DNA of 64,000 bases. It comes from Gemmatimonadota bacterium. Its GTDB lineage: Bacteria; Gemmatimonadota; Gemmatimonadetes; Gemmatimonadales; GWC2-71-9. The translations under genes were made by a program, and so were the position numbers. The notes under the pieces are model-generated. The model was not told the DNA's origin and ran no database searches. It saw only the letters and a program-made list of their open reading frames with translations. Positions within the stretch are counted from its first letter, which is position 1, and the number at the start of each line of letters is the position of its first letter. Shown here in pieces: positions 14,615-63,352 of the stretch. Where the stretch lies: positions 1 through 64,000 of the forward strand of contig JBDHAB010000014.1 in the NCBI GenBank assembly GCA_039588295.1. Reading direction: 5' to 3'.

Positions 14615-14619
14615 GGTCG

Positions 14620-15195: not shown

Positions 15196-15280
15196 CTGTT
15201 TTTCTCCATCCGTCTGTGTGTGTGTTTGACAGCCCAAAGAGGTCCTCCACATCAATGTGGAGGACCTTCGTTCGCTATGA

Positions 15281-18200: not shown

Positions 18201-21200
18201 GCACTAGCCGCCCCGCTACCCGTGAAGGTCACGTCAGCGCCAGAATCCGGGATGACGGTGAAACCACCGTCCGCGCCGACCGTGAGGTGATTGAGGATGC
18301 CGTCCGTGCAGCGGAAAGCGTGCGAGCTCGACGTATTCAAGATGGCGACCCCTGGGCCGTCCCCGAGAAGATTGTTCACCTGGAAGGCGGTGCCCGACTC
18401 GGTCGAGTTGCCGTTGACCTCGACCAGAGAACCACTGCCGTTCGGCGTGCCCGTGATCGAGAGGGCCGTGGTCGGTGTCGGCGTCGTGTGGGTCGGCACC
18501 GTGATGGTAGCCATGTCGGCGAGGACAGAGTCGATGGTGCCCGCGATGGCGAAGGGACCATCCGCAGCCGTCGTGGTAAACGACGGAGTGTTGGGCGAAC
18601 TCGTGTTGTAGACCTCTTGGAAGGTCGAGTTTCCACTCGCCACGGTGGTGTAGGTCACAACACCGCCCGTAACACCCTCAGCAAATTCGAAGACTCCCGC
18701 GTTCTGACGCCAGATCGAGAGCTCGACCTCCCGGACAGCCGCGCTGGCGTCCGCGCCACCCACGACGTTCGAGGCCAGCCACGCCTCGGTGACGGGGGTG
18801 CCACCCACCCCGTAGAGGGTGAGCACGTCCGCGGCGATTCCGGCGATGCGGAAGATCTTGCTGTTGTTCAGGTTGGCAGACGAGAAAACGGCGATGAAGT
18901 TACCGACGGTGAAGGTGGCGCCTTCGCCCACCCCGACCGTGATGGAAGGCGCGTTCGTGGCCGGCCCGATGCCAGCAGTGAACGAGACCGAGGTGCCGGT
19001 CCCGGCCCCGGTGATGCTGACGATGTGGACGTCGCCGCTCGTGGTGTCAACGGCGGAGTCGTAGCCGTCCGAACCCGCGCCCCAACTGACGTAGGCGTCA
19101 CCGAACGTGCTGTTGTTGTAGGCCATGAAGCCAGCGGTGGCCTCGTAGGTGCCGACGGCGGTGTCCGACGTCGGGTCGTTGTTGGACATCTGGATGATCC
19201 AACCGTGTTGGCCATTCACCGCAACAGCGCCCGGGGAGGTGTCCGTGATCTCAGTCCCGGTCGTGGCATTGCCGCGGGCGATCGTGTTGGCGAAACCTCC
19301 GGTCCCGGTATTGATATCGGTCGCGGTGGTGGTACCGACGTTCACGCTGCCCGAGGGGCCTCCGGCGATATTGGTAGCCGACGTGGTCGTAACCGAACCG
19401 AGGTTCGCTGTGGTAACCGGAGCTCCGTTACCGAGGTTGAGCTCCATAGAAACAGCCAACGCCGCCGTCCCGACGTTGACCACTCCAATCCCCGACATGC
19501 TCCCACTCGTGTGGAGGTTGGCCGTAGCGGTGCCCGTGGCGTTGACGACGACAGGGTCGAAGACCAGATTGGCCTCAGTAGCCGCAGAACCCCCCGACCC
19601 GGTGACCGTGATCTCTCCCAGGGCCACGGCCGTCGCCGAATCCGACGTATTGGTGATGAGGATCCTTGTGTTGACCTCCCCCGAGCTCTCCGCTCCCGAG
19701 GTGGTGAGCGTCATGTTTCCAGTACCGGCGTTGAGGGCCGTGGACGACGGGCCGGTAATGGAGCCCATCGTGACGATGTTGGTGTTCACTCCCGTGCTGA
19801 AGTTACTCGTGTTGGTCGTGCTGCCGGTGTTGGTGTTAACGTTGACGACGCTGGCACCCGCGATACCGTTGTCGGCCTGGATGTTGACGTTCCCGGTGCC
19901 GGAGGTCGACGTCACGTTGGAGTAGACATCGAGGTTCGACGTCGTCACGGCGGTGGCGCCAGTGGCCTCCGCCGTGAACATCGCGCTGGCGACGGCCGCC
20001 GCCGTGTTGTCCGCATTGACGACCGCGATGTCGTTGGCGATGGTGCCCCCCGTGCTGCCCGAAGAGGTGACGGTGAAACCGCCGGTGACCGTCGTGAAAT
20101 CGATGGCTCCCGCGCCGAGGGCGTCGACCGTGAAAGAGGACCCTGACGTCATGTCGAAGTCGATGCCACCGGCCGCCGTCCAGACGGCGATGTTCGTGCT
20201 CCCGTCCCGGAACTCGGCGATGTTGCCGGTGCCTGTCGAATCAACGATCAGACCGATCCCATCGCCCGAGGTACCGATAACCGCGGACGCGGCACCCTCA
20301 TCGGACGGGTTCGTGATCGTGAAAAGGTCCCCGCTGTTCAGGTCGTCGCCGGCCAGGTTCAACAACGGCTGGGCGGTGGCGGCCGTCATCACACCGTTTT
20401 CGAGCCCCATGACCGTAACGGTCCCGTCGATCTCGCCTGCGATGTTGAAAGAGGAATCCGCCGCCGTCACGACGAACATCGGGTCATCGCCGGTGCTGGC
20501 CGAATAGGTTGCCGCGAAGTCCGATCCTGCGGCGGTCGCAAGAGGAACGAACGAGGTTGCGGAATCGCTGTCGCCGTCCGCTACCTCCCAAGTACCGGAA
20601 CCGGTGCATCGCATGACGCAAAGGTCGGCCTTGAGAAGGGTTCCGGACGCGGTCGCCTCTGCCTGGATAGCCGTCTTGAACCATGGGTACGTCGGGGTCG
20701 TGTCGATGGTGATGAGGCTATCGGCAATTGCCCCGACCACATACAGGCCGTTGATGCACTCGAAGTTGCTGCCGACGGCAATGATGTAGTCGCCAACCGA
20801 CAGAACCGGAGCACCCGCATCCACCGTGAAAGTCGTGGCCGTAGTTGCCGAGTAAGTGTCACCAGGCGTGTACGTGGTGGCCGCAGAAACAATCACCGTA
20901 CCACCTGAGAGACCCGTGGTGTTGGCCTGAGCGTTCAGCGTGATGAAGTTCTGACCGTTACCACCCGCACCGAAGTAGTGGTGCAGGTTGGAGTCCCGGA
21001 TGTGATCCGAAGTGTCCGACCCGACGGAGGACAGGATACAAGCCCCCGAGTCGAAAAAGATCTCTTCCCCGGACGTCAGAATAACGTCGCGGGTCGCCGT
21101 CGCCGTAACGTCCTGGCTGGCCGTAAGGGCCACGTCAGCACCGGTCGTGGCCGTGTCCCCGGTGGAGAGGATGATGCCGCCATCCACCGTCGAACCATCA

Positions 21201-23161
21201 CCGCCAGAGACGGCGAAGGTGCCTCCGAGGCCACCCGTCGATGTTCCCATCGAGACACCGATTCCGCCGCCCGTACCCGTACCAACGACATCACCAAGGT
21301 TGATGTTGAAATCACCAGCGTTGAAGTTGCCCGTGACATCACCCGTCGCCACCGTCACATCGGCGGTTGCGGCAGACAGAGCCGCCGTCGCCAACGAGAT
21401 GGTGCCACTACCAGAGGAGATGCCGACCGAGGTCGTACCGAGAAGGTTGCCGATGGCGACGGTGCGGCCCGTGGTCGTCCCCGCGCCAAGGGACACGTTC
21501 CCATCGTCCGCATCCGAGCCGATCAGGATGTTGCCTCCACTGGAGTCGACGGTCAGGGCATCCGTGGCCTGGAAATCCGCCGTTCCGGCCGAGATGAGAT
21601 TCAGAGCTCCACTCGTCACCGTCTGGAAGGTGGCGGCTGCACCGGTAGCCTGAACCGTCAACGCAGCGGCACGGTTGATGATGCCCGCGGTCTCCATGAC
21701 CTCCAGGCCCGTGGCCGCAGAACCGACCGTGATGCCATTCAGGAAATCAGTGTCGACCTGATCGAAATCAGCGACATCGACATCCACCGAGTAATGGATT
21801 GTCGTCGTACCACCACCGGAACCTTCGGTGACGGTGAAAAGATCCGCACTCAGCACATCCCCGAGAATCCACTCAAAGCCAGTACCCAGATCGATTGTGT
21901 TGCTGCTCAACGTGGTGAACGCAACGCCAGCCTGGTTCGCGTAAACCGATTCGAGGGTGTCCACCACGGCGGCGCCGTCGGTGAAGCCATCCGACAGGAA
22001 CCCTTCCTCGGGGCAGTCCTCGAACGCATCACGACGCACGTATGCGAAGTCGGCCGTCACCGTGGCAGCGAGATCGCCATCAGTGAGTTCCACGAGATCA
22101 TCGTTGGTGCCATTGCGAACCACCAAACTCATCTGGAGTTGGTCAGGGTCGATACCCGTGATCGTCGATCCATCGACGGCGCTCTGACACTGCATCAGAC
22201 CAAAGACCTGGTCACCGTTGATATCCGTCAACAGTTCGCCATCGGCCGAATTGACCAGGACCGCCAGGCTCTTGGGCTGGAGAGGATTGGGGCCCGCAAC
22301 CTCTTCAAGACCGCTGGATCCGAAAGTTCCCGCCGTGGCGCACACGAGACCGAGAGTGGTCACGGCACCGATAGCAGCGGTTGTGGCGGTGGGAAGCTGG
22401 TCCGGAGACAGCACCAATGCGCCAACCCCTCCTCCGAGAGTGCTGCCGCCGCCTGCCAACGTACCGGCACCCCACGAGAGAGTGACGGCTATCTCGGTAC
22501 TGGCGATCGAGTTACCGCCAGCTCCTTGAGTTTTTGCCGTACCGACGAGCGTCGTCGCGGTGATGGCCGACGAATAGACGGTCGGGTGAATGGTCGTCGC
22601 GAGCGCGTAGTCGGTGCCCGGAGTACCCGTAAGGTTGATCGCTCCGGCAAGGTTGGAAAGACTGAGCGCAGCGGATCCACCGATCTGCACGTTGCCGTCC
22701 ACGTTTGTCAGCGTGGTCTGGAACGTGTAAGTCTTGACGTCGATCGTGACCGTATCGCCGTTGGAAACGTTGACTCCGGTCGAAGTCAGCGTGCCTGTCG
22801 CGGCACTCGCGGTCGGGATGTCGACCCCGACCCGACTGACGCGCTTGAGGATGCGCTTGCGCTCCAGGTCATGGAGATCGTCGTTGAGAGACTGGGAACC
22901 ACGGATCGCTCCTCCCTCGAAAGTGACGGGAGCCGACAACGCTTGGTACCAATCGTTGCCCGCCTTCGTACCGTTGATGAGCATGTTGAGCTGACTGATC
23001 ACCGCCTGGAAGTTGGCGGCGAGCGAATCGCCCGTCGTCTGCATCGCCCCAATAGAGCTGACAACCTGATCGTCGTAGTTGGTTGCGCCGCCGTCACCGA
23101 GAGCACCGCCGAGGTCAACGATTTGAATGAATGGATCGAGATGGGTCTTGCCGATAGCCAT
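15281..23161 (-). CDS. Giant Thr/Gly-rich virion protein (2626 aa)
   Basis: Uninterrupted ORF; ATGTLT..NGDTVTI..TYTF structural-type motif; beta-rich repeats. Confidence 0.8.
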   Translation of the reverse strand: MAIGKTHLDPFIQIVDLGGALGDGGATNYDDQVVSSIGAMQTTGDSLAANFQAVISQLNMLINGTKAGNDWYQALSAPVTFEGGAIRGSQSLNDDLHDLERKRILKRVSRVGVDIPTASAATGTLTSTGVNVSNGDTVTIDVKTYTFQTTLTNVDGNVQIGGSAALSLSNLAGAINLTGTPGTDYALATTIHPTVYSSAITATTLVGTAKTQGAGGNSIASTEIAVTLSWGAGTLAGGGSTLGGGVGALVLSPDQLPTATTAAIGAVTTLGLVCATAGTFGSSGLEEVAGPNPLQPKSLAVLVNSADGELLTDINGDQVFGLMQCQSAVDGSTITGIDPDQLQMSLVVRNGTNDDLVELTDGDLAATVTADFAYVRRDAFEDCPEEGFLSDGFTDGAAVVDTLESVYANQAGVAFTTLSSNTIDLGTGFEWILGDVLSADLFTVTEGSGGGTTTIHYSVDVDVADFDQVDTDFLNGITVGSAATGLEVMETAGIINRAAALTVQATGAAATFQTVTSGALNLISAGTADFQATDALTVDSSGGNILIGSDADDGNVSLGAGTTTGRTVAIGNLLGTTSVGISSGSGTISLATAALSAATADVTVATGDVTGNFNAGDFNINLGDVVGTGTGGGIGVSMGTSTGGLGGTFAVSGGDGSTVDGGIILSTGDTATTGADVALTASQDVTATATRDVILTSGEEIFFDSGACILSSVGSDTSDHIRDSNLHHYFGAGGNGQNFITLNAQANTTGLSGGTVIVSAATTYTPGDTYSATTATTFTVDAGAPVLSVGDYIIAVGSNFECINGLYVVGAIADSLITIDTTPTYPWFKTAIQAEATASGTLLKADLCVMRCTGSGTWEVADGDSDSATSFVPLATAAGSDFAATYSASTGDDPMFVVTAADSSFNIAGEIDGTVTVMGLENGVMTAATAQPLLNLAGDDLNSGDLFTITNPSDEGAASAVIGTSGDGIGLIVDSTGTGNIAEFRDGSTNIAVWTAAGGIDFDMTSGSSFTVDALGAGAIDFTTVTGGFTVTSSGSTGGTIANDIAVVNADNTAAAVASAMFTAEATGATAVTTSNLDVYSNVTSTSGTGNVNIQADNGIAGASVVNVNTNTGSTTNTSNFSTGVNTNIVTMGSITGPSSTALNAGTGNMTLTTSGAESSGEVNTRILITNTSDSATAVALGEITVTGSGGSAATEANLVFDPVVVNATGTATANLHTSGSMSGIGVVNVGTAALAVSMELNLGNGAPVTTANLGSVTTTSATNIAGGPSGSVNVGTTTATDINTGTGGFANTIARGNATTGTEITDTSPGAVAVNGQHGWIIQMSNNDPTSDTAVGTYEATAGFMAYNNSTFGDAYVSWGAGSDGYDSAVDTTSGDVHIVSITGAGTGTSVSFTAGIGPATNAPSITVGVGEGATFTVGNFIAVFSSANLNNSKIFRIAGIAADVLTLYGVGGTPVTEAWLASNVVGGADASAAVREVELSIWRQNAGVFEFAEGVTGGVVTYTTVASGNSTFQEVYNTSSPNTPSFTTTAADGPFAIAGTIDSVLADMATITVPTHTTPTPTTALSITGTPNGSGSLVEVNGNSTESGTAFQVNNLLGDGPGVAILNTSSSHAFRCTDGILNHLTVGADGGFTVIPDSGADVTFTGSGAASAFETDGFETGTVKATSGTATTSTMLVEAENTSTGDATVTVTGSADGNGNTGTVTVLAESTNVTAGTATLNLEAERAGAGGGAITINMATTQGAAVNVGTGPFTQTAMFNTGAGVKSTTLGSENTSSDTTINAGSGDLDLNSGGNFTIDSITDSSITQTTAGGTAVLTFTVDNTGAAGVANLDLVATASNAAGGTPAVNIDATSALIGDPGVVNIQTQELGTVNVATGTVGANTANILTGVGVDNTLNVGNADADTTLNWTAGSSTAAAAEKGWTYNFPNKFLAQATQLDRNDTVAPGVARHEVSSFYLENQNEGNVALFSGTGNDAGVATNNYTISVVSSDTVDEITSFTNNGAATNPTAVLTTGGLYSVGEVLLVTDPGGSTFEENRGLFVVAGIAGTALTLDAAPGAGFEFFNNQVTSQTGLTATVRRATITAERVDTTGEVLVARAFNDIGLATYVNIVTAGGDLVSVVATTGGSSATQGSVSGDSFEWFINDAEFLEWSSATGGHRLLRFAPAVGADIVNIGEANLANGVTIAGGTAGILADATGPVSLDSTATASNFTITGAASSTLTLKTDVTTNGDLATTRLEAINSNGTAGSSIVSVQALRSGVGGGSATINIGEENSATLNLGTGAFTQAANFNTGAGIKTTTIGSTNTTSLTTVDGGTLGLDLNSTGSLTADGVGACNFTATSGNNTFATLTTGNVILNSVDSMDIDAGAAIDMLAVTTISIEATTAMSVDAGTTMAFTTANAADASGNIYAVTTGDSTAGTADGPDIRMTPGDGFTTGAHGEFQILGVQDNDEAFIALAATGGGSGNSKVYAGDTIPTHTAPGGSLFCLNTGAGATGNTLYVQIDASGGGDDGSTWEPITTSGTAVTKNFFQDTITGAGVGPSGNLSASDFTGGVIAVKPTTDFDFNFDAQIYLNGLLLMNAGGDVSSGVGNTIDVSAAGPTFSAGDVVTISYTQNATNTTA

Positions 23162-40147: not shown

Positions 40148-40548
40148 GGAGCCCTCCGACTACCCACCGCCAGGTCGGCCAGGTCTTTGTGCGGGTCGAG
40201 CAGTCGCACGCGCTCGCCATCGACCTCGACGGTGAACGCTTCGTGAAGCTCGTGAATGATGATCTGCTGGATGGCGAGCCACGCCGTGAACACCACTCCG
40301 GTGTCCGGAGTGCCCGATGCGATGAACCACTCGCGCCCGTACCCGACGCCCTGCTCGGAGAATTCTCCGTTCACATCGGGGCGTTCGAACGAGCAGCGAA
40401 CGAGCCATCCCCGCTCGCCATCTTCGTAGTTCATCTCGGTCACCGTCTCCATCGCCCACCCGAAGCGCCAGTCCTCCAGCCGAGTACCGACCATCTGGAT
40501 GCTCTCCAGGAGATCCATCAGTTGCGTGCCGTCGGTGATTGCCTTCAT
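40144..40548 (-). CDS. Hypothetical protein
   Basis: GREW and HELHEAF motifs. Confidence 0.55.
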   Translation of the reverse strand: MKAITDGTQLMDLLESIQMVGTRLEDWRFGWAMETVTEMNYEDGERGWLVRCSFERPDVNGEFSEQGVGYGREWFIASGTPDTGVVFTAWLAIQQIIIHELHEAFTVEVDGERVRLLDPHKDLADLAVGSRRAP

Positions 40549-41222
40549 ACCGGCAACACCCCCGTTACGGGCAACTTCCCCGGCTGCCACAACGGGTCAC
40601 TGGCACTCAGCTTCTCGCCGGCTTTGAACTCGGCGTTCACATGTTTGCCTACGAGCGTCGCGAAGAACTCGTTGTCGAACGCCTGCAACGGACGCACGAC
40701 GACACCTTCGACTCGCGGGCCCCAATGGGAGCGCGTCGAAGCGTAGTAGATAACGCGATCTCGTAGCTCGTCCCCGGTGTCGAAAACGCCGACCTGCATC
40801 AACGGTGCGACGGCACAGTTGAGACGGCCCGCCCACTGATATAGGTACTGCCAGTCGGTCCAGGTTCCGCGCTCGTCGTGACGTGCTCCGATGATGAACA
40901 ACCGCGGAAATTCGTCGCCGACGTACTCGATCGAGTGGACGGCGTAGCACCACTCCGCGAAAATCGAATAACCCTCGGGGATCAAATGCCGAACGTTCGC
41001 GTGGTACGCCTTGAGCTCATTGAACTGGCGTCCCGTCGCGGGTCCCGAATGGGAACGAGCGAACACCTGCTCGTTGGTGAGACAGACGTTGGCGCCGTCC
41101 ATCTTCTCCATGAGGACCACTGGGTAGCCCAGGAACTTGCCCCACCTCTCCATCCGCACGTCGTCGGGCGTCGCGCCCGGCGAGGACGGCAAATGCGCGA
41201 TTCGCGGAAACTTGTCACTCAT
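40545..41222 (-). CDS. RNA ligase family nucleotidyltransferase
   Basis: FPRIAHLP.SPG..DD, EKMDGAN (motif I), ARS, EGVVVR. Confidence 0.8.
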   Translation of the reverse strand: MSDKFPRIAHLPSSPGATPDDVRMERWGKFLGYPVVLMEKMDGANVCLTNEQVFARSHSGPATGRQFNELKAYHANVRHLIPEGYSIFAEWCYAVHSIEYVGDEFPRLFIIGARHDERGTWTDWQYLYQWAGRLNCAVAPLMQVGVFDTGDELRDRVIYYASTRSHWGPRVEGVVVRPLQAFDNEFFATLVGKHVNAEFKAGEKLSASDPLWQPGKLPVTGVLPV

Positions 41223-41297
41223 GGCATAGGAGGCACGGAGCCTCTGCACTTTTTACACAAACCGGGCCCCCAAACTTCACGAAAGAGTAGAAACCCT

Positions 41298-46139: not shown

Positions 46140-46444
46140 TCCTTCCAACCGGTCTCGGGGTCCCAACGCTCGTCGGGCTTGTAGGGACCCCACCCCATGA
46201 TCTCGTTTCGCTTGTTGCACGCCTCGATGTACGAGGATGCCATGAAGCGATGCAGGACGACGTGCCGCTCCTCGAAACTCAACAGCTTGTGGCCACCAGG
46301 CTTCGTCGAACACAGGGAGAGGTTGTTCGGTTCGTCGTCGGGGTCCCCTTTGAGGTATCCCTCGCAGACGAGCCATTCGACCGGTGATCCGTCGTGTTCC
46401 TCGGCAAACCACCGGTCGAATTCAGAGTAGTAGCGGTCGCTCAT
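46136..46444 (-). CDS. Hypothetical protein
   Basis: Overlaps RNase Z stop. Confidence 0.5.
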   Translation of the reverse strand: MSDRYYSEFDRWFAEEHDGSPVEWLVCEGYLKGDPDDEPNNLSLCSTKPGGHKLLSFEERHVVLHRFMASSYIEACNKRNEIMGWGPYKPDERWDPETGWKD

Positions 46445-47289
46445 ACTCGATCCCCTCCATCGAAGAAATGGATTCGATCAAGCATCGCCGCAGGAAACCG
46501 CTTCTTGGCGATCTCCTCGATCTCGGCCCGCTTGTACCGCATGGAGCGGTGACACAACACGAGAGCTTCGCCTTCGAACTTCTCGCAGTGCTCCACCATC
46601 TCAGCGATGTGGGTGTGGCCGAAGTTCCGACACCCTTCGACGTTGTTGAAACCCTCGTCCCAGACGGTGACCTCGTGAACGAGGATCTTGGCCTTGCGGG
46701 CGAGCTCCTGATTGAGCAGGAACTCGATCTGCGTGTCACCGGGAACAGCGAGGATCGGAGCCGTCTTGGCGTCCGTGATCTCGACTCCATTCTTGCGGAG
46801 ACGGCCGAGCTCTTGGCCTTCGACCCCGACGAACTCCGGCTTGATCTTGCGAGTGGTGCGCTCGATGACGTACCCGACCGAGGGTGCACGGTGGATGGTT
46901 TCGAGAACCTGGGCCGTGTACTCCTTGTCGATCTTGATGGAGTCCCCAGGCTTGACGCCCACGACCTCCAATGTGGAGTCAGGATTTCGGTCACCGAACA
47001 AGGTGCCCAACGTGTTGAGCACAGTCTGGACCATCTCCAGGATCTGCTCTGGCACGTAAACGGTCAGAGGAGTCTTTGCACTCCTGGTGCTTCTCTTCCC
47101 CACGATGTGGGGAAGCGCCATGAAGTGGTCGGGGTGACTGTGCGTGATGAAGAAACGATCAGCAGTCACGCCCGGAAGGACGCAGCCGGCATCGAACACC
47201 GAACGCACTTCGGGGCAGTAGACCGAAGTCTGCACGCCTCCTTGCGCAAACCCCTGTAGGGTCACGCCTGCTACGGTGAATTTCTCCAT
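46441..47289 (-). CDS. rnz: Ribonuclease Z (tRNase Z)-like MBL-fold hydrolase
   Basis: THSHPDH, H..PSVGY, GDT, HEVT, H.S.RY motifs and flexible arm. Confidence 0.8.
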   Translation of the reverse strand: MEKFTVAGVTLQGFAQGGVQTSVYCPEVRSVFDAGCVLPGVTADRFFITHSHPDHFMALPHIVGKRSTRSAKTPLTVYVPEQILEMVQTVLNTLGTLFGDRNPDSTLEVVGVKPGDSIKIDKEYTAQVLETIHRAPSVGYVIERTTRKIKPEFVGVEGQELGRLRKNGVEITDAKTAPILAVPGDTQIEFLLNQELARKAKILVHEVTVWDEGFNNVEGCRNFGHTHIAEMVEHCEKFEGEALVLCHRSMRYKRAEIEEIAKKRFPAAMLDRIHFFDGGDRV

Positions 47290-47646: not shown

Positions 47647-47722
47647 TGGTGGTCAGACCTGGAATTGAACCAGGGACACGCGGATTTTCAGTCCACTGCT
47701 CTACCAACTGAGCTACCTGACC
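47647..47722 (-). tRNA. tRNA-Phe(GAA)
   Basis: Cloverleaf, loop CTGAAAA, CCA. Confidence 0.9.
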
Positions 47723-47940
47723 ATACGGGTGGGACGCCGACCAGCCATTTGGCTGACCGGCTCCGTAAAGGTCTCGGTGTTGCGGACAGGCTTGCTATCG
47801 GGTTGCACGGTTCGGCCGCAGCGTACGCATGTACGACTCCCGTCCTCGGCAGTTTTACTGCCGAGCATCCCGTCGTGGTTGCACGCGTGCGTGCGATCGT
47901 AGTGAGTGAAAATTAGTGACATCGTTCTGTTCTTTCGACT

Positions 47941-48074: not shown

Positions 48075-48239
48075 CTAGCTAAACTGCACGCCAACGGCGT
48101 TTTTGGGGTGCGTGACGGGATTTGAACCCGCGACCTCTGCATTCACAGTGCAGCGCTCTACCTGCCGAGCTCCACGCACCATAGGATGGTGATGGTCTTC
48201 GCCCTCAGAGAGGGGCTCGGTATGGAGTTGCGTCAACAT
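48075..48239 (-). CDS. Putative His-sensing leader peptide MLTQLHTEPLSEGEDHHHP..., reading into tRNA-His
   Basis: CAT CAC CAT codons (48186-48194) immediately upstream of tRNA-His; promoter upstream. Confidence 0.55.
   Translation of the reverse strand: MLTQLHTEPLSEGEDHHHPMVRGARQVERCTVNAEVAGSNPVTHPKNAVGVQFS
48104..48180 (-). tRNA. tRNA-His(GTG)
   Basis: G-1:C73, loop CTGTGAA, CCA. Confidence 0.9.
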
Positions 48240-48258
48240 GGTGAACCTTGAGATGGGC

Positions 48259-48286
48259 AGAATACTCGTGTGAGACGCCCTGTCAA
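48259..48286 (-). promoter_or_regulatory. Sigma70-like promoter for His/Phe tRNA unit
   Basis: TTGACA-16-TATTCT. Confidence 0.6.
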
Positions 48287-49231: not shown

Positions 49232-49382
49232 GATCAACGCCGAGTGAATAACCTTGAGTTGCGTTTTCACGCCAGATTTACATGTCTGGTGGCTTTACCA
49301 ATTTGCCTATCTGCCCTTAGTGGTGGGCAGAGTTGGACTCGAACCAACAATTGCTTGTGAGATTGTTCTGTTGGCGTTGATC
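49232..49382 (-). ncRNA. Y-RNA-like ncRNA A with circularly permuted tRNA domain
   Basis: Terminal stem GATCAACGCC/GGCGTTGATC enclosing T-arm, loop-closed acceptor stem, D-arm, anticodon-like arm; followed by AACTTTTC. Confidence 0.7.
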
Positions 49383-49390
49383 GAAAAGTT

Positions 49391-49522
49391 ACGAAGCGAC
49401 CGAGTTGAAGAGCTTGTTTGGTTGCAAAGCTGGAATCGAACCAGCGACCTACTGTGTCATTGACAGTTGCTCTAACCGAATGAGCTACTTGCTTGTGAGC
49501 CCTGCTGTGGTGGTTGCTTCGT
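49391..49522 (-). ncRNA. Y-RNA-like ncRNA B: tRNA body enclosed by outer stem
   Basis: ACGAAGCAACC/GGTCGCTTCGT stem, CACAAGC, cloverleaf with non-canonical loop CAATGAC. Confidence 0.7.
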
Positions 49523-49653
49523 GGCGCCGGATCCAGGAGTCGAACCTGGCAGTTGCTTGTAGACATTCACCCGTGAGCTCCCCGGAGGGAGCGAGTGGCG
49601 GTGTCGGATCTAGCCGATCTGAAAAATCGGTGACCCCCACGGGTCAATCCGGC
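49522..49653 (-). ncRNA. tRNA-like ncRNA C with about 60-nt structured variable-arm insert
   Basis: GCCGGAT/ATCCGGC-GCCA acceptor, T-arm, insert ending ACAAGC. Confidence 0.65.
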
Positions 49654-49730
49654 AAGTGGGGTGTTCGCTTGAGGGAGTTCCCTCTTCTCCCCCGAAGGGA
49701 AAGGGCAGCGAAACGGTGCCCTGAAAAAGT

Positions 49731-49866
49731 TGCGAAGTGACCGAGGGGAGAGGCTGTTTTGGTGCAAGGAGCAGGATTTGAACCCGCGACCTTCTGGTTA
49801 TCGACCAGACGCTCAACCGACTGAGCTATCTTTGCTTGTGAGCCTAACTGGAGTGGTCACTTCGTA
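49731..49866 (-). ncRNA. Y-RNA-like ncRNA D, paralog of B
   Basis: TACGAAGTGACC/GGTCACTTCGCA stem, CACAAGC, tRNA body with loop TCGATAA. Confidence 0.7.
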
Positions 49867-49867
49867 G

Positions 49868-50003
49868 TGGAGGACCCTGGATTCGAACCAAGAGTTGTTT
49901 AGCTTGTGGACATTCGCCGAGAGCTCCCGTGAAGGAGCGAGTGGTGGTGTCGGTTTCTACCGATTTACCGTCGGGTTGACCCTCCATTAGGGCCGTGTCC
50001 TCC
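49868..50003 (-). ncRNA. tRNA-like ncRNA E, paralog of C
   Basis: GGAGGAC/GTCCTCC acceptor; insert conserved with C. Confidence 0.65.
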
Positions 50004-50118
50004 ATGTTGTTCAGGGTAGTTCCGAGTACGTGGTCTGGGGGGCTTCAAGGTCCCGACCGCTACTGGGTCGGGGTTGTGCTTGTTAGACCTGCGTGTATGG
50101 AACAGCCGTGAGTTCGGG

Positions 50119-50156: not shown

Positions 50157-50729
50157 TCAGATTTTCTCAACTCCGGCCGGCGAAATCGAGTAGCCGGTCT
50201 TGCGGCCGGCCTTGATGAACCGCTGCGCCGCGTAGGCGATGTAGGTCGCGGTGAGCTGGATGAACGGCAGGAACTCCCCGTCCTCGCAGGTCGGAGCTCC
50301 AGCGTCGCCCACGTCGTCGATGACGAAGTCCTCGTCCCAAATGGCCCGCCCAAAGCCCCCATCGGCCGCAAGAGCCCCGTGGAGGCACGGGACCCCGTGC
50401 TCCCGAGCGAACTTCTGAACGATCCTACGGGCCTCTCCGTTGTCCAGGCAGTCGATGAGTAGATCCGCCCCGCCGAGAAGCTGATTCTCGTTGTCGGCCG
50501 TCAGCTTGTTGCTCACGACCTCGATCTTACGGCCATAGCAGAACTGCATGGCCGCCTTGAGAGCCTCAGTCTTCTTCTTGCCCACCCCATTCTTGAAATG
50601 GAACTGAGAAGCGACGTTCTTCATCTCCACCCGGTCGAAGTCGATGACCTTGATGGTCACCTCCTCGTTCCGGAGGGTCTGCACCAGATGGGAACCCAGT
50701 GCGCCGACGCCGATGATCGTGATTTTCAT
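50157..50729 (-). CDS. ThiF/E1-like adenylyltransferase
   Basis: GVGALGS, DFDRVEMKN..SQ, GKKK, DCLDN; candidate catalytic Cys in APTCE. Confidence 0.9.
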   Translation of the reverse strand: MKITIIGVGALGSHLVQTLRNEEVTIKVIDFDRVEMKNVASQFHFKNGVGKKKTEALKAAMQFCYGRKIEVVSNKLTADNENQLLGGADLLIDCLDNGEARRIVQKFAREHGVPCLHGALAADGGFGRAIWDEDFVIDDVGDAGAPTCEDGEFLPFIQLTATYIAYAAQRFIKAGRKTGYSISPAGVEKI

Positions 50730-55411: not shown

Positions 55412-55488
55412 TGGTTGCGACGGTGGGAATCGAACCCACGACCTCTCCCTTATGAGGGGAATGCTCTGCCGGACTGAGCTACGTCGCA
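55412..55488 (-). tRNA. tRNA-Met/Ile2(CAT)
   Basis: Cloverleaf, loop CTCATAA, ACCA. Confidence 0.85.
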
Positions 55489-55545
55489 AAAATGCCCGTT
55501 GCTGCACTGCGCTCGACTGGTACGGGCGGCCCGTCGAACTGAAAA

Positions 55546-55623
55546 TGGTAGCGGGTCTCGGATTTGAACCGAGGTCTCGGGATTATGAGCCCCGCGGGGA
55601 CAACCGGACTCCCCCAACCCGCA
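55546..55623 (-). tRNA. tRNA-Met(CAT), initiator-like
   Basis: 1-72 mismatch, G-rich anticodon stem. Confidence 0.8.
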
Positions 55624-55776
55624 AAATTTAGTGAACCTGTGACAGCGTGAGGTTCTTGCGCCCACGGATGCGGCGAAGTGCTCGACTAGGGCTCTGCTTT
55701 TTCCCGAGTCCTAGTTGAGCTCGGACGAGCTGTTCGAGACGGAGGAACTCGTCCTCCGTCAGCTCGTCCTCCGTCG

Positions 55777-55812
55777 TTAGTAGATCTTGAAAACTTCGTT
55801 CGTCATCCCCAT
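55777..55812 (-). CDS. Possible leader peptide MGMTNEVFKIY
   Basis: GAGGA RBS; followed by alternative hairpins, upstream of the CAT tRNAs. Confidence 0.35.
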   Translation of the reverse strand: MGMTNEVFKIY

Positions 55813-55832
55813 CGTGTCGTCCTCGACTTTCT

Positions 55833-55910
55833 TGGTGGACGTAGGTGGATTTGAACCACCGACCTTCCGCTTATCAGGCGGCTGCACCGACCAGGCTGTG
55901 CTACACGTCC
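55833..55910 (-). tRNA. tRNA-Ile(GAT)
   Basis: Loop CTGATAA, ACCA. Confidence 0.9.
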
Positions 55911-55914
55911 TCGG

Positions 55915-55988
55915 TCGGCCTGGAAGGAGTTGAACCTTCGACCTCGCACTTATCAGGCGCGCGCTCTAACCAACTGAGCTACAGACCG
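55915..55988 (-). tRNA. tRNA-Ile(GAT), no encoded CCA
   Basis: Loop CTGATAA. Confidence 0.9.
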
Positions 55989-56031
55989 AGTAGATAATCG
56001 GTCCAATGTCACTCTCGTCTTCGTTTTCCAT
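55966..56031 (-). CDS. Putative Ile-sensing leader peptide MENEDESDIGPIIYSVCSSVG
   Basis: AAGGAG RBS; ATT..ATT ATC just before tRNA-Ile. Confidence 0.6.
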   Translation of the reverse strand: MENEDESDIGPIIYSVCSSVG

Positions 56032-56062
56032 CTCGGTCTGCTCCTTTCTTGGTTGATGTTCT

Positions 56063-56137
56063 TGGTAGCCTCGGACGGGATTGAACCGACGACCTTCACC
56101 GTGTCGAGGTGCTGCTCTGCCACTGAGCTACGAGGCT
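56063..56137 (-). tRNA. tRNA-Val(GAC)
   Basis: Loop TCGACAC, ACCA. Confidence 0.85.
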
Positions 56138-56142
56138 GTGTT

Positions 56143-56216
56143 TGGTACCGAGTGAAGGACTCGAACCTTCGCTTCCATCGTGTGAAAATGGCACTCTACC
56201 TCTGAGTTAACCCGGC
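56143..56216 (-). tRNA. tRNA-Val(CAC)
   Basis: Loop TTCACAC, ACCA. Confidence 0.85.
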
Positions 56217-56882
56217 ATAGTTTTTGAGTTGGTCCATCCATCCTTCGATGCGAGCTCGGAAAAGTGTGTCGTGAACCGCGACCTCCAAACACCCGTAGGG
56301 ATGCCCTTTCCGTTTTCCTTTGTTGGTTTTGTTCAAATTCTTCGTGGCCTTGATCTTGGAAGACGCCACTCCAGACACCCGGCTCCAGTACCGTTTAGCT
56401 TTGCTACCGTCCAGCGACGGGTGCAGACGAACCCGCAGTCTAATTTTGTCTTCGGGGACCTCACACTCCTCCCGTAGAAACTGGAGCACGAATCGAATCA
56501 TGTCCGGGTCCGTGTTGCTGATTGAAAACGAGTTCCTTTCCTTTTTACCTTCACCCCAGTAGAGCGCAGCCATCACTCCCCGGAGGGTGCGACTGGAAAG
56601 GTCAACGGGAATTTCCCTTCGACCTCGTACCCGAGCCTCTTCTCGTTTCTTGGCCCAGATTTGCTTAGGGGAGTTGGGGTGGGATGCTGCGGCGATGCGT
56701 CCTTTCAGACGCCCTTGTTCCTCCTTGTCTCGTAGTTGTTCGACCTGTTGCTTGGTAAGGGGGATGTCTCGGGTCCAACGACTGATTGAACTTTTGGCGC
56801 ATCCCGTGTGATTGGCGATCTCGGTGAGGGACTGTCCCTGACGACGCAGGTCTCTTGCTTCTTCTCGTTGATCAGGCTTCAC
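56196..56882 (-). CDS. HTH plus LAGLIDADG-like domain protein (putative homing endonuclease)
   Basis: N-terminal HTH (SLTEIA..GCAKSSISRW); ALYWGEG..F.ISNTD. Confidence 0.7.
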   Translation of the reverse strand: MKPDQREEARDLRRQGQSLTEIANHTGCAKSSISRWTRDIPLTKQQVEQLRDKEEQGRLKGRIAAASHPNSPKQIWAKKREEARVRGRREIPVDLSSRTLRGVMAALYWGEGKKERNSFSISNTDPDMIRFVLQFLREECEVPEDKIRLRVRLHPSLDGSKAKRYWSRVSGVASSKIKATKNLNKTNKGKRKGHPYGCLEVAVHDTLFRARIEGWMDQLKNYAGLTQR

Positions 56883-56945
56883 CGTTTCAGTATGGCAGAA
56901 ATGGAACCGACGGCCAAGGTGTCCTGTGCGGACCAGTGTAAAAAG

Positions 56946-57021
56946 CGGGGCGTACGGGATTTGAACCCGTGACCTCCTACGTGACAGGCAGGCGTCCTAA
57001 GCCAGACTAGACCAACACCCC
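56946..57021 (-). tRNA. tRNA-Asp(GTC), no encoded CCA
   Basis: Loop CTGTCAC. Confidence 0.9.
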
Positions 57022-57152
57022 ATGTTGGCGGAGCAGACGAGAATCGAACTCGCAACCTTCGGACAGACAATCCGTTGCGCTACCAATTGCGCCACTGCTC
57101 CGTACATATCGTCGGTATCGTCCGCATCATCGCTTTCGCTGTTGGTGTTCAT
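56997..57152 (-). CDS. Putative Asp-sensing leader peptide MNTNSESDDADDTDDMY..., reading through tRNA-Asp
   Basis: AAGGAG RBS; 6 Asp in 8 codons just before tRNA-Asp. Confidence 0.65.
   Translation of the reverse strand: MNTNSESDDADDTDDMYGAVAQLVAQRIVCPKVASSILVCSANMGCWSSLA
57026..57101 (-). tRNA. tRNA-Asp(GTC), divergent
   Basis: Loop TTGTCTG, GCCA. Confidence 0.8.
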
Positions 57153-57394
57153 CGTGCTGCTCCTTTCTTGGGGTGAGTGGGTGTCTGGAAAGTTCGGCTG
57201 TTTGATCCCACAGGCCGTCCGGTCGCCTGCTGTATCGCCCCTCGGTGCGGTGCGCTGTCGTGCACCTCGCTTCATCGAGGCGCGTTAGGATGGGATGGAA
57301 AAGTTGAGGCTTTTGTGTCTACCGGTCAGCCTCGGTGGCCGGCCATCACGGATCCTTGATCAGGGGACAACCTGGGACAGGATTGGAAAAGTTA

Positions 57395-57546
57395 GGGATG
57401 CAGGTGAGTGTGCAAGGTGGGTGTGCAGTCATTTGACCACTCCGGCATAAATGGAGCCGGAGCCTGGATTCGAACCAGGAGTCTTCTGTGAATGAAACAG
57501 ATGTCTTTACCTTTTGCTTGTGACCTTAAACGGGGACCTGCGTCCC
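57395..57546 (-). ncRNA. Y-RNA-like ncRNA F with permuted tRNA domain
   Basis: GGGACGCAGGT/ACCTGCATCCC stem, TCACAAGCAA, T-arm then CTCCGGC-loop-GCCGGAG then mini D-arm; AACTTTTCC. Confidence 0.65.
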
Positions 57547-57587
57547 GGAGCCCACGGAGGGATTCGAACCCTCGACCTCAGACGTAC
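57547..57587 (-). pseudogene. 3' half of a tRNA-Thr-like gene
   Basis: AGGTC GAGGG TTCGAAT CCCTC CGTGGGC TCC without 5' half. Confidence 0.6.
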
Positions 57588-57589
57588 GG

Positions 57590-57664
57590 AGCCCGCGAGA
57601 GGATTCGAACCTCCGACTCCCTCATTACGAATGAGGTGCTCTAGCCGGACTGAGCTACACGGGC
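57590..57664 (-). tRNA. tRNA-Thr(CGT)
   Basis: Loop TTCGTAA. Confidence 0.9.
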
Positions 57665-57701
57665 GATTGATGTTGGTGTTCTCCTGTTGAAGTGAAGTGC
57701 T

Positions 57702-57775
57702 TGGAGCTGGCGGTGAGAATCGAACTCACGTCTTCGGGTTACAAATCCGGAGCTCTGCCATTGAGCTACGCCAGC
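57702..57775 (-). tRNA. tRNA-Thr(TGT)
   Basis: Loop TTTGTAA, TCCA. Confidence 0.9.
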
Positions 57776-57874
57776 GATAAGGCCGGCGTGGCCAGTCCGT
57801 GTCGAGCAACCCTTCCGGGCTCCCCGGCGGGTTTCTTCACTCAGTTGGAGTTCGGTAAATCCGCCGGGAAATGC

Positions 57875-57970
57875 TCAACACGGGGTCATATCGCCCATAA
57901 TGGGCAATACGACGGCCACGACGACCAGATTGGTCGTTGTCGTGGCTGTGTATGTCGTGGAGCGTTTCAT
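57875..57970 (-). CDS. Attenuator-type leader peptide MKRSTTYTATTTTNLVVVAVVLPIMGDMTPC
   Basis: 8 Thr and 5 Val codons, thrL-like start; between promoter and tRNA operon. Confidence 0.75.
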   Translation of the reverse strand: MKRSTTYTATTTTNLVVVAVVLPIMGDMTPC

Positions 57971-58018
57971 GGCGAAAAATCCGAAGCCGCTTTCCTGCCA
58001 AGGGAGGCGACCTGTCCA

Positions 58019-58047
58019 GGTGTACGCGCGCTTCGACGGGCTGTCAA
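58019..58047 (-). promoter_or_regulatory. Sigma70-like promoter of tRNA operon
   Basis: TTGACA-17-TACACC. Confidence 0.65.
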
Positions 58048-58071
58048 GCACCCTTGTTCACTTTTTTTGAA

Positions 58072-58851
58072 TCACCATCGCCACACGAACTCGTCGAGCC
58101 ACTGCTTGCGGCTCTCGTCGTCGAGCGCGAGGAAAGCCTGCTCCTCCGCCATCATCTCCACGTTGAAAGCGTCGGCAATCTTGCGGTGTGCGGTGCCGGG
58201 GTCGAACGCCCAAGGCTGCCAGGGGTAGTGGGCCCCCAGGCGATACTGGTTCTCCACCTCGATGATGCAGTCGATCCACGGCTTCATAGACGCCCACGTC
58301 ATCGTCTCACGGTCCATCTCGCGCTTGGCGAACTCCTGCCGGTGCAGGAGCTTGAGCGGGAGCGGGCTGTGCCCGAGGTTGTCGTTGATGGAACGCCCCG
58401 CGATGACGATGTTCGACTGGCCGTTACCGAGGCCGTTGTTGCGCTCGCATACGAGATGCTCCCGAGAGCACTCCCACGGAACGTAGTAGTGAAGAGCAAT
58501 CCGGAGGTCCGTAGGGACGAGGTACATCTGGACGCCCGTGTACCAACATCGCTGGGGGAGGCCCGCATCGAGGCCGAACCGCTTAGCCATCTTCACCGAG
58601 ACCCAGTCCCGGTTTTTATTGCGCTTTGCGATCTCGTCGTAGTGCATCCACACGAGCTCGGGGTCGTGCTGATCGCCCCCGGTCATCACCAGGAGCTCCC
58701 GGTCAGCGTACTTCTTGTAGCGAAGGAGGCGTCCGGTCTCGGGGTCAACACGGTTTAACGCGGCAACGCGCATCCGCTCTTGAAATTCGGGATCGTGTTT
58801 CCCTTTCCACTCGCGGAGCTTATCCCGGTTCTTTCGACCGTGACGGCCCAT
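58072..58851 (-). CDS. Hypothetical protein, degenerate HNH-like
   Basis: CWYTG..SREHLV..NIVIA..IN. Confidence 0.55.
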   Translation of the reverse strand: MGRHGRKNRDKLREWKGKHDPEFQERMRVAALNRVDPETGRLLRYKKYADRELLVMTGGDQHDPELVWMHYDEIAKRNKNRDWVSVKMAKRFGLDAGLPQRCWYTGVQMYLVPTDLRIALHYYVPWECSREHLVCERNNGLGNGQSNIVIAGRSINDNLGHSPLPLKLLHRQEFAKREMDRETMTWASMKPWIDCIIEVENQYRLGAHYPWQPWAFDPGTAHRKIADAFNVEMMAEEQAFLALDDESRKQWLDEFVWRW

Positions 58852-60128
58852 CAGTGTCGGGGAACATTCCCGGGGTCGACAGCGATCTTCGCCACGATCC
58901 TCTTGCACTCGGAACACGAAACCGTGAGGGCTCCGTTCTCGTAGGAGCACCAGGTGGGGGCACCGATGTGGCACTGGGGATGCAGGAACATCTCGGTGCT
59001 GTGGCTCTTGTGGTCACACCCCTCCACGGCGCACGTCATACCGTCGAGCGTCACCTGGGTCAGCGGCGGGAGGTTTTTGCGGCGCCCATTCTCCGCCTCG
59101 ACCACTTCCTCGTCGTCCCCCTCGTGGTCATGGCTCCCATGCTTGTGGGACAGTATCGGCCCCAACGCCGGATAGAATTTCATGGCGTCGTTGGGCATCT
59201 GCGGAAACCCAGAGACCTGACCGTCACCGATCTCCATGATGATCCACTCGCCGTCTGCCGTCTGTGCGAGGTCCATGGAGAAGAACTGGCTGTCCACCTT
59301 CGCCGCCAGCGCGCCGAGAGTTTCGAACGAAGGGAGATCCTCGATGGATTTCGGGGCCGAAAAACTGCGAGGCATACTCTCCTCCCAACCACCGTCGGGC
59401 TCCGGGACCTCGTGGGTGACACGCTCGTAGGCGTCCTCGTCCCAGTACTCGCTGATGTTGATGCTGTGTCCGTTGAGCCAGAAGATTCGGAACTCCTCCG
59501 ACATCGGCATCCCCGACTGAGGATGCTTGCCGATGGATTTGAGCGGCACGAACTGACGCAGGATCACACCCCCCTGGAGATCGTCACCCTGGCGCTCCAG
59601 GAAATTCGAGATCACGGTCTGGGCCTTCTCCATGTTGGGGATGAAGCACGCCTCCTCCCACTCGTGTTTCCTACTTTTCACGTAGTCCTTGATGAGGATG
59701 CCGTGCTCGTAACGACCGAGCATCTCCTGGGCAGTACGGAGGATCCTCTCGACACTGATCTCATGCTTCTGGATGATTGCGGAGTCGGGCGTCGAATCGA
59801 CGAGATCGAGGTACCAACCGGGGAACTCGTGAGCCTTCCGATACTGGTGGGGGGTGTTGATGAGGTCCACCAGGCAAACCTGGAGCTTCTCGTAGAGCTT
59901 CTCGTACTGATCGGACGTGAGCATCCACCCCCGGTAGATAGCCGGTGTGGGCTCCTCGAAATCAGGGACGTACTTCACGGCCGCTGCCGCATCGTCGTCG
60001 TTGACCAGGGACTCCCAGTGCACGAAAGCGACCTGATAGCCACACTGCTTGGCGATGTCGGCTTCGGTGGCCCAATCTGGGTCGGGTTTTTTGGGCTCGA
60101 AGGGATCGGATGGGAACAGGACGAGCAT
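58851..60128 (-). CDS. ATP-grasp domain protein (R2K-like clade) with C-terminal Cys/His cluster
   Basis: YRGWML, KDYVKS.KHEW, EFRIF, MDLA, EIGDGQVSG. Confidence 0.8.
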   Translation of the reverse strand: MLVLFPSDPFEPKKPDPDWATEADIAKQCGYQVAFVHWESLVNDDDAAAAVKYVPDFEEPTPAIYRGWMLTSDQYEKLYEKLQVCLVDLINTPHQYRKAHEFPGWYLDLVDSTPDSAIIQKHEISVERILRTAQEMLGRYEHGILIKDYVKSRKHEWEEACFIPNMEKAQTVISNFLERQGDDLQGGVILRQFVPLKSIGKHPQSGMPMSEEFRIFWLNGHSINISEYWDEDAYERVTHEVPEPDGGWEESMPRSFSAPKSIEDLPSFETLGALAAKVDSQFFSMDLAQTADGEWIIMEIGDGQVSGFPQMPNDAMKFYPALGPILSHKHGSHDHEGDDEEVVEAENGRRKNLPPLTQVTLDGMTCAVEGCDHKSHSTEMFLHPQCHIGAPTWCSYENGALTVSCSECKRIVAKIAVDPGNVPRH

Positions 60129-63151: not shown

Positions 63152-63180
63152 TTGACACGAACGTCGAGCACGACTACAAC
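63152..63180 (+). promoter_or_regulatory. Sigma70-like promoter of Lys tRNA unit
   Basis: TTGACA-17-TACAAC. Confidence 0.65.
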
Positions 63181-63189
63181 GGCAAGACC

Positions 63190-63222
63190 ATGTTCTGCAT
63201 GAAACGCAAGACCAAGCTGTAG
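63190..63222 (+). CDS. Putative Lys-sensing leader peptide MFCMKRKTKL
   Basis: AAA, AAG, AAG codons right after the promoter, upstream of Lys tRNAs. Confidence 0.55.
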   Translation: MFCMKRKTKL

Positions 63223-63274
63223 CCCGAGGGGACGGACGCAATCCGCCTCTTGGGCGTCGATAGCGTTTATCCCC

Positions 63275-63352
63275 GGGCCGGTAGCTCAGTCTGCGCAGAG
63301 CGGTGGGTTCTTACCCCATAGGTCGAAGGTTCGATTCCTTCTCGGCTCACCA
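63275..63352 (+). tRNA. tRNA-Lys(CTT), divergent
   Basis: Loop TTCTTAC, ACCA. Confidence 0.8.

Follow-up and report, generated by a model that had tools for sequence, protein, structure and literature searches.

A predicted codon-sensing leader ahead of a Thr-Asp-Val-Ile-Met tRNA block on a probable giant-phage contig

The multivalent leader-peptide attenuators of enterobacteria include thrL, which responds to Thr and Ile, and the leader of ilvGMEDA, which responds to Leu, Val and Ile. E. coli has the pheM-pheST attenuator, whose leader peptide responds to the level of charged tRNA, the target being a synthetase and the output an intrinsic terminator. tRNA charging is sensed through a codon also in the T-box riboswitch, with its Stem I specifier loop and T-box antiterminator. 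Leader-peptide control is known for amino-acid genes; at the locus described here it would be applied to a block of phage tRNA genes. The locus lies in the window, that is, the first 64 kb of contig JBDHAB010000014.1 (C14; 72 kb, G+C 60.4%), which is probably a fragment of a giant phage that ended up in the bin of an unrelated genome. On its minus strand a short open reading frame (ORF) precedes tRNA genes for Thr(UGU), Thr(CGU), Asp (two), Val(CAC), Val(GAC), Ile (two) and Met (two). This leader is a real, conserved feature, and it is very probably a codon-sensing leader for its tRNA block. We further consider it likely that it acts as a translated sensor, one of a genome-wide set, that couples the output of the Thr-Asp-Val-Ile-Met block to the speed at which the host decodes the matching codons. 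That it senses several amino acids at once is a reading we favour somewhat, on the evidence of its codon composition, and that the folding of the first tRNA is the output, rather than a transcription stop signal, is suggested by folding models at odds we would call even. We infer both the translation of the leader and the regulation by it from sequence comparison and from modelling.

The promoter and the leader ORF named in the original prediction are both present on the minus strand of the window (Table 1) and recur in its homologs; with the window, these make up eight distinct sequences (the window, L037, L039, L064, L065, L114, L116 and L117), all with a Thr block behind; L066/G034 duplicates L065/G033 and was counted once. 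The homologous blocks are the Thr-Asp-Val(-Ile-Met) tRNA blocks of a phage-like clade. The pattern TTGAC[A/T]-17-TA.. lies upstream of the ORF in 8/8, with a spacer of variable sequence in the five aligned homologs, and it also heads other tRNA blocks. A generic promoter scan made no call at this site because the -10 element lacks its last T. The ORF translates as MKRSTTYTATTTTNLVVVAVVLPIMGDMTPC*, using ACG and ACA three times each, ACC twice, GTC three times, GTG, GTA and ATT once each, two internal ATG and one GAT. Thr codons are enriched (8 of 30 codons, p 5e-4), and the probability that 30 random codons would cover all 7 anticodon classes is 0.0145; 16 of the 30 codons are read by no block tRNA of the window. 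The earlier statement that the leader lists the exact set of downstream tRNAs holds for the amino acids and fails for the codons, two ACC and one GTA having no matching tRNA in the window; relatives carry Thr-GGU and Val-UAC. Where those relatives have tRNA-Thr(GGU), the window retains the 3' half of a tRNA, with the T arm and the acceptor strand (57547-57587, minus strand), a remnant that may reflect a deletion or an assembly collapse; Val(UAC) is also absent from the window. The leader itself is not an assembly artefact, because contigs from public DNA runs span it; these come from two studies (marine sediment by record) and show few differences, with the listed indels outside the ORF.

The leader ORF remains open in all eight homologs, with no frameshift and a shared end, TGT TGA, and its sole internal indel is of 3 nt, against indels of 1-38 nt in the flanks. 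Each leader holds seven to nine Thr codons. The Asp codon GAT is invariant, an Ile codon is present in 7/8, and the two internal Met codons are kept in seven of the eight while moving among positions 10, 15, 25 and 28. A scan with a stop-region pattern gave nine matches, seven before Thr blocks and two by chance, and a scan with a pattern from the 5' untranslated region (UTR) gave 30, five of them before Thr blocks. The invariance of the stop region is partly a selection of matches, because three homologs came from the pattern that includes it; of these last three, only L117 also surfaced in the scan using the 5' UTR motif. In the 5' UTR hairpin H0, two of five pairs are changed on both sides. 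A cloverleaf reading of the 5' UTR was dropped, as H0 closes too early.

That the composition of the leader mirrors the tRNA block behind it, as was claimed for this single case, proved to be a rule across the clade. All tRNA regions of two near-complete relatives, G032 and G033 (619 and 497 kb), were taken, and the leader was defined as the first ATG located 6 nt or more downstream of a TTG[AC][CA]N-16/18-TA promoter, which yielded 10 leaders in G032 and 7 in G033; of the block heads tried, four in the two genomes together gave no promoter and were left out. The leader's own block was its best match in 9/10 and 7/7 cases, respectively, and the true leader-block assignment ranks first of 3,628,800 and 5,040 permutations, a ranking obtained on two related genomes and with block limits set by hand after inspection of the leaders. 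Of the anticodons, 41 of 42 in G032 and 37 of 38 in G033 have a codon in the leader of their block (permutation means 16.9 and 17.9). Examples are MALWLQQQQI before two tRNA-Gln, a TTG- and TTA-containing leader before Leu(UAA) and Leu(CAA), EREREGE..ENN before Glu and Asn, RLPLRPYL before Pro, Arg and Leu, and a Ser/Ala/Gly/Cys/Trp/Arg leader that covers 12/12 and 12/13 anticodons of a block for Arg, Ser, Gly, Ala, Trp and Cys. When the scan was run without block limits, 39 tRNAs of the clade had a candidate leader, and 21 of them showed cognate enrichment at p<0.01, where other amino acids would lead one to expect 0.5; at more distant loci the figure was 6 of 51 tRNAs (0.4 expected), there for Lys and Asp only. 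In such distant elements the tRNA arrays show no sorting by amino acid, and Lys- or Asp-rich leaders stand before matching tRNAs at L019 5689, L070 3015, L081 618, L084 4335 and 16301, and L091 17565.

Leader and tRNA content also change together in one relative. In G033, tRNA-Val(GAC) is located in the Met block; the Thr leader of that genome lacks GTC, and its Met leader carries GTC GTC GTC GTG, a run that the Met leader of G032 lacks. The same Met block includes an Arg tRNA, which is CCU in G032, with AGG codons in the leader, and CCG in G033, with CGG added. The G033 Thr leader also has no Ile codon, and tRNA-Ile is found there behind a further -35 hexamer. This codon swap supports the idea of an inventory, with the weight of a single event between two related genomes.

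The two helices proposed originally, one pairing the Thr run with the Val run (H1) and one spanning the stop codon (H3), are both part of the minimum free energy (MFE) structure of the leader region, which at -113.8 kcal/mol (z -6.07) was matched in stability by none of 200 shuffles. When the homologs are laid on the predicted OFF structure, 86.8% of cells are paired and seven pairs (11 cells) are changed on both sides, mostly in the inner Thr/Val helix; the covariation controls gave 0-1 of 500 shuffles and, for slid controls, 34-51% paired cells, figures that carry the tool's own warning that related sequences can beat the shuffle control without structure. Within H3, 92% of cells are paired in both stems and one pair is changed on both sides. 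An RNAalifold pair of the start-codon region with the tRNA has no covariation and was not adopted. The lack of a clear U-tract terminator was borne out on the minus strand of 56500-60000, where no terminator-like site was found, and none is visible in the eight aligned rows.

Folding calculations point to the first tRNA itself as the element that would be switched. On its own, tRNA-Thr forms its acceptor stem with a probability of 0.97-0.99 in seven of eight homologs and 0.70 in L116, and with the leader attached this falls to 0.27 or less in 8/8. The RNA just 5' of tRNA-Thr pairs with the 5' strand of the acceptor in 7/8, across three different acceptor sequences (read by eye), and 96% of the cells of this anti-acceptor helix are paired in six aligned rows; in L116 the tRNA is misfolded in another way. 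A translating ribosome was modelled by masking its footprint codon by codon, with three footprint lengths. In the window, the acceptor-stem probability is 0.08 without a ribosome, 0.99 with the ribosome at codon 10 and 0.08 again at the stop; it lies at 0.96-0.99 for A-site codons 9-11 and mostly at or below 0.15 from codon 13 on. The modelled OFF state requires the anti-acceptor, and the ON state requires the Val segment, which drops it from 0.99 to 0.02 when forced unpaired. A strong switch on the Thr run is predicted in four of the eight homologs: the window, L037, L039 and L064. In the last three the ON state extends over much of the Thr half, whereas ribosome positions in the Val half mostly give OFF, with a further rise in L037 at codons 21-23. 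Among 21 block heads, which are not independent of one another, 14 have upstream pairing of the acceptor strand; the same pairing occurs in 227 of 840 shuffles and in 4 of 45 tRNAs from the bin. Ribosome-position folding of 11 other leaders gave a mixed picture: the acceptor is sequestered by default in nine, and release occurs on or just before cognate codons for two Glu leaders and Leu(UAA), near the stop for Lys and for Gln of G033, and not at all for Met of G033.

The block contains further, internal leaders. An Asp leader with a strong Shine-Dalgarno sequence stands before the first tRNA-Asp in 8/8 homologs, its last Asp codon 8-9 nt upstream of the tRNA and its frame continuing through that tRNA, and an Ile leader of the same build was found in six of eight. 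Sister modules for Lys and His lie elsewhere in the window (Table 1). A Lys-rich leader is present in 6/7 of the Lys blocks seen, and an HHH leader reading through tRNA-His in 4/7 of the His blocks seen, G035 and G036 having no upstream ATG. In the Asp, Ile and His leaders, which read into a tRNA, a running ribosome would unwind that tRNA and a waiting one would leave it free. Scanning viral contigs with the His-leader pattern gave two matches, neither with tRNAs, and a pattern scan of genome contigs gave none. At L101 1468-1816 (minus strand; G032), an internal Trp/Cys leader with WC twice is followed by a hairpin and a U tract, a classical-looking terminator unlike anything in the Thr leader (read by eye).

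These elements can be assembled into a putative sequence of events. The sigma70-type promoter, from its sequence and conservation, would start one transcript comprising the leader and the tRNAs; no -35 hexamer was found between the Thr and Met tRNAs of the window block. Host ribosomes would translate the 31 codons. According to the folding model, in the absence of a ribosome, or once a ribosome has reached the stop, the Thr run would hold the Val run and the anti-acceptor would pair with the 5' acceptor strand of tRNA-Thr(UGU), such that this first tRNA could neither fold nor be excised. A ribosome paused in the Thr run would free the Val segment, which would capture the anti-acceptor and allow the tRNA to fold, a step predicted strongly in 4/8 homologs. 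The misfolded state may also curtail the rest of the block, through Rho-type termination or decay. The Asp and Ile mini-ORFs would add local control, since a waiting ribosome would stop short of the tRNA that a running one would unwind.

Several observations weigh against this mechanism. The switch on the Thr run is weak in two homologs (L114, peak 0.29; L117, peak 0.23) and absent in two others (L065 and L116), and the ON helix, although 93% of its cells are paired in six aligned rows, shows no covariation. A bonus of -3.5 kcal/mol for the tRNA fold turns the window ON at nearly all ribosome positions; because so modest a bonus removes the OFF state, the folding model describes a plausible switch rather than a proof of one. 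Folding with ribosome-position constraints upheld one half of the earlier expectation, in that a ribosome on the Thr half switches the RNA, and failed the other, in that stalls on Val, Ile, Met or Asp codons leave the window OFF; sensing of Thr is therefore all that the model accounts for. Queued ribosomes were considered on paper and set aside, since the Val segment would remain covered. The leader is equally conserved at its three codon positions (0.85, 0.84 and 0.84 for positions 1, 2 and 3), hence RNA structure could explain much of its conservation, and upstream of the ORF no canonical Shine-Dalgarno sequence is present at the usual distance. In G037 the His leader keeps its frame and has lost HHH, with one His left, and G032 has possible promoters in an insertion before Ile and Met.

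The main rival to folding of the first tRNA keeps the sensor and makes transcription termination its output, either Rho-dependent or by a hairpin without a U tract: a stall before the stop would keep H3 and let the polymerase pass, and arrival at the stop would melt H3 and expose a loading site. Its appeal is that the Val, Ile, Met and Asp codons would become true sensing points, which would explain the full codon inventory; H3 does span the stop, with a nearly invariant 5' arm, most of the nine short spacers that follow first tRNAs are rich in C and poor in G (12 C : 4 G in the window), and the Trp/Cys leader of G032 has its hairpin and U tract. The region after the stop is, however, mostly paired, with no long unstructured C-rich stretch before the first tRNA, and termination leaves unexplained why anti-acceptor pairing is kept across three different acceptor sequences, so that we regard it as possible but not likely. 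Doubt of the same order attaches to a sensor of Thr only, in which the Val run is present as the pairing partner of the Thr run, and RNA structure keeps the single Ile, Met and Asp codons in place as passengers. The model switching on the Thr half only, the place of the Val codons in the arm that pairs with the Thr codons, the separate leaders for Asp and Ile and the even conservation of the three codon positions all agree with it; yet the inventory rule recurs in other blocks with unrelated sequences, such as that of the Arg/Ser/Gly/Ala/Trp/Cys leader, the Met count is kept through position swaps, and GTC codons move with tRNA-Val(GAC) in G033. In the reading preferred here, the codons of the master leader for Val, Ile, Met and Asp have probably been selected as extra sensing points.

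Two further alternatives question translation or its purpose. The 5' leader might be an untranslated structured element for processing or timing, its ORF and codon bias by-products of repeats and hairpins, as the missing Shine-Dalgarno sequence at usual spacing, the strong conserved folding and the lack of a codon-position signal would allow. We think this improbable, given a frame intact in 8/8 while indels crowd its flanks, the codon-to-block match in 16 of 17 leaders, and internal leaders that combine strong Shine-Dalgarno sequences with cognate runs. The bar minigenes of lambda, short ORFs that trap tRNAs as peptidyl-tRNA, are the model for the other alternative, in which the mini-ORFs would be sinks for host tRNAs, to be replaced by copies that the phage itself provides. 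Such sinks would agree with short, cognate-rich ORFs under strong promoters, but at 7-50 codons, always in cis before matching tRNAs and woven into switchable structures, these ORFs make that explanation very improbable.

Table 1. Features of the leader, the tRNA block and the sister modules, in window positions.
Feature	Positions	Strand	Basis or remark
sigma70-type promoter TTGACA-17-TACACC	58019..58047	-	sequence; TTGACA 58047-58042, TACACC 58024-58019
5' UTR hairpin H0 with invariant CCCTTGGCAGG (58004-57994)	57986..58011	-	motif kept 8/8
31-codon leader ORF (8 Thr, 5 Val, 1 Ile, 2 internal Met, 1 Asp)	57875..57970	-	open in 8/8 homologs
H1, Thr run paired with Val run	57915..57946	-	MFE; two-sided changes at 4/5 inner pairs
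H2, hairpin over codons 20-29	57885..57913	-	MFE; one-sided G-U/G-C changes
H3, long stem spanning stop codon (57883-57872 with 57808-57797; inner stem 57870-57861 with 57830-57821)	57797..57883	-	MFE
GGCCACG, alternative partner of Val segment 57920-57914 (predicted ON helix)	57787..57793	-	forms with A site on codons 9-11
Anti-acceptor helix, 57789-57782 with tRNA-Thr(UGU) bases 57775-57768 (predicted OFF state)	57768..57789	-	folding; missed in the original prediction
tRNA-Thr(UGU), first gene of block	57702..57775	-	ARAGORN, Rfam scans
tRNA-Thr(CGU)	57588..57664	-	tRNA calls
Internal Asp leader, Shine-Dalgarno AGAAAGGAG, ATG 57152, 6 Asp in 16 codons, reads through tRNA-Asp 57101-57026	56997..57168	-	
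Two tRNA-Asp(GUC)	56945..57101	-	tRNA calls
tRNA-Val(CAC) and tRNA-Val(GAC)	56063..56216	-	tRNA calls
Internal Ile leader, Shine-Dalgarno AAGGAG, ATG 56031, 3 Ile, stop inside D arm of tRNA-Ile	55966..56047	-	
Two tRNA-Ile(GAU) and two tRNA-Met(CAU), block end	55412..55988	-	tRNA calls
Lys sister module: TTGACA-17-TACAAC, leader MFCMKRKTKL (63190-63222), hairpin, tRNA-Lys(CUU) heading four Lys tRNAs	63152..63352	+	
His sister module: TTGACA-16-TATTCT, leader with HHH (ATG 48239), reads through tRNA-His	48075..48286	-	

The reading of the contig as a piece of a giant phage is based on its contrast with the bin in G+C and tRNA arrangement, on bin relatives without the block, and on the IMG/VR relatives of a VWA protein encoded behind the tRNA block. 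The bin comprises 4.5 Mb, and its other large contigs have a G+C of about 62-66% and their own dispersed tRNAs; the window holds 19 tRNAs sorted by amino acid (ARAGORN). Among 30 genomes related to the bin, only single-tRNA matches to the block were found and the leader was matched in none, and the contig is therefore not typical of the bin lineage. The closest relatives of the VWA protein (76-87% identity) are encoded on metagenome contigs and on IMG/VR entries reaching 619 kb, the two largest IMG/VR relatives being 92% and 94% complete by CheckV, and more distant ones (52-61%) at 21 genome loci, mostly of Myxococcota or Deltaproteobacteria. Viral identity is taken from the IMG/VR membership of these relatives. 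The phage hallmarks PF03237, PF07068 and PF04984 had no match in the IMG/VR relatives, the PF07068 control also matching nowhere, and 40 window proteins gave no virion match against PHROG. In GenBank phages, 246 records matched, none over more than 80% of the query, and the 20 listed ones cover at most 5%. That the host is myxobacterial is a guess.

Further features were noted in and around the window. A 228-aa ORF with an N-terminal helix-turn-helix is inserted between the Asp and Val tRNAs (56196-56882, minus strand) and ends within tRNA-Val(CAC); in relatives the block is interrupted elsewhere, by different insertions. The two tRNA-Asp genes differ in the anticodon loop, which in the first is unusual and reads TT GTC TG in the window and TT GTC AG in most relatives (56063-57101, minus strand). 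A 69-codon ORF at 47713-47922 (minus strand) has Cys/His spacing like that of small zinc-binding proteins, carries a Phe close to its C-terminus (FTEP), and runs into the second tRNA-Phe; similar ORFs occur in L014, G032, G033, G036 and G037, and the window ORF has only a weak NCBIfam match (E 0.1). Genes for an RNA ligase, an RNase Z-like hydrolase and a ThiF-family protein are found near tRNA blocks (window 40545-41249, 46441-47289 and 50157-50729, minus strand; L012 1963-2643), and downstream of the Lys block, immediately beyond the end of the window, there is a release-factor-like sequence (read by eye). Two giant proteins of 2579 and 2626 aa (6875-23161, minus strand) are without Pfam or PHROG match; the latter has a relative in the 619 kb record.

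Conserved RNAs marked by the motif CACAAGC flank the VWA gene; they are located at 57395-57545, with five more copies of the motif in 49260-50100 (all on the minus strand), and also in the L014, G032, G033, G035, G036 and G037 regions, where the anticodon-like triplets differ between relatives. Their predicted fold is a permuted tRNA mimic carried by a long bulged stem, with an anticodon arm, a T arm, an acceptor stem closed by a loop and a D stem. In these respects they resemble YrlA-type Y RNAs as PMC4201824 describes them. They had no Rfam Y RNA match, and the neighbouring protein shows VWA domains only.

If the proposed role is correct, phage tRNAs would be an on-demand response to a shortage of particular tRNAs rather than a fixed codon supplement, the phage could refill exactly those pools that the host has lost, and ribosome-mediated attenuation would gain a new output in the folding and processing of a tRNA precursor. 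The leaders might then be put to direct use for sensing individual pools of charged tRNA. PMC10264068 calls the reason for the presence of tRNA genes in phages a long-open question and presents phage tRNAs as a counter to host tRNA depletion; its abstract concerns anticodon-loop changes and not regulated expression, and such depletion would give a phage reason to gauge individual tRNA pools. In the Anabaena trn operon (L-array), as outlined in PMC8421152, spare tRNA genes near RNA repair genes are induced when translation is impaired, through promoter direct repeats over the -10 box and start site, whereas here control is predicted to act per amino-acid block through translated leaders. A literature search of titles and abstract starts, with few subscription papers covered, returned no description of leader-peptide control of tRNA genes. 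What this locus adds is the block-by-block rule over whole genomes, the codon swap with tRNA content, the anti-acceptor helix in place of a terminator, and the read-in leaders. A clade of giant phages with a near-complete gauge of tRNA supply, made up of amino-acid-sorted blocks, codon-sampling leaders that track tRNA moves, and a terminator-free switch working through first-tRNA folding and read-in ribosomes, is an extension that we put forward tentatively, with slightly more doubt than confidence.

Of the known systems, the T-box riboswitch likewise senses through a codon, a task predicted to fall here to a reading frame, and it had no Rfam match in the window. The pheM-pheST attenuator shares the use of a leader peptide that gauges charged tRNA to set part of the translation machinery, and differs in its synthetase target and its intrinsic terminator. 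The label thrL-like, given originally, serves as a working analogy and not as family membership, with no match to the Rfam Thr leader in the window at the gathering score or at E up to 10, and none for three leader peptides against Pfam and NCBIfam at E up to 10. As in thrL and ilvGMEDA, a promoter-proximal short ORF rich in regulatory codons overlaps helices, here predicted to be alternatives, and a stall is predicted to switch the system ON. Unlike in those operons, the target is a set of tRNA genes instead of biosynthetic enzymes or synthetases, there is no U-tract terminator, the helix predicted to switch includes the first tRNA itself, and the leader type is repeated for nearly every tRNA block of the genome.
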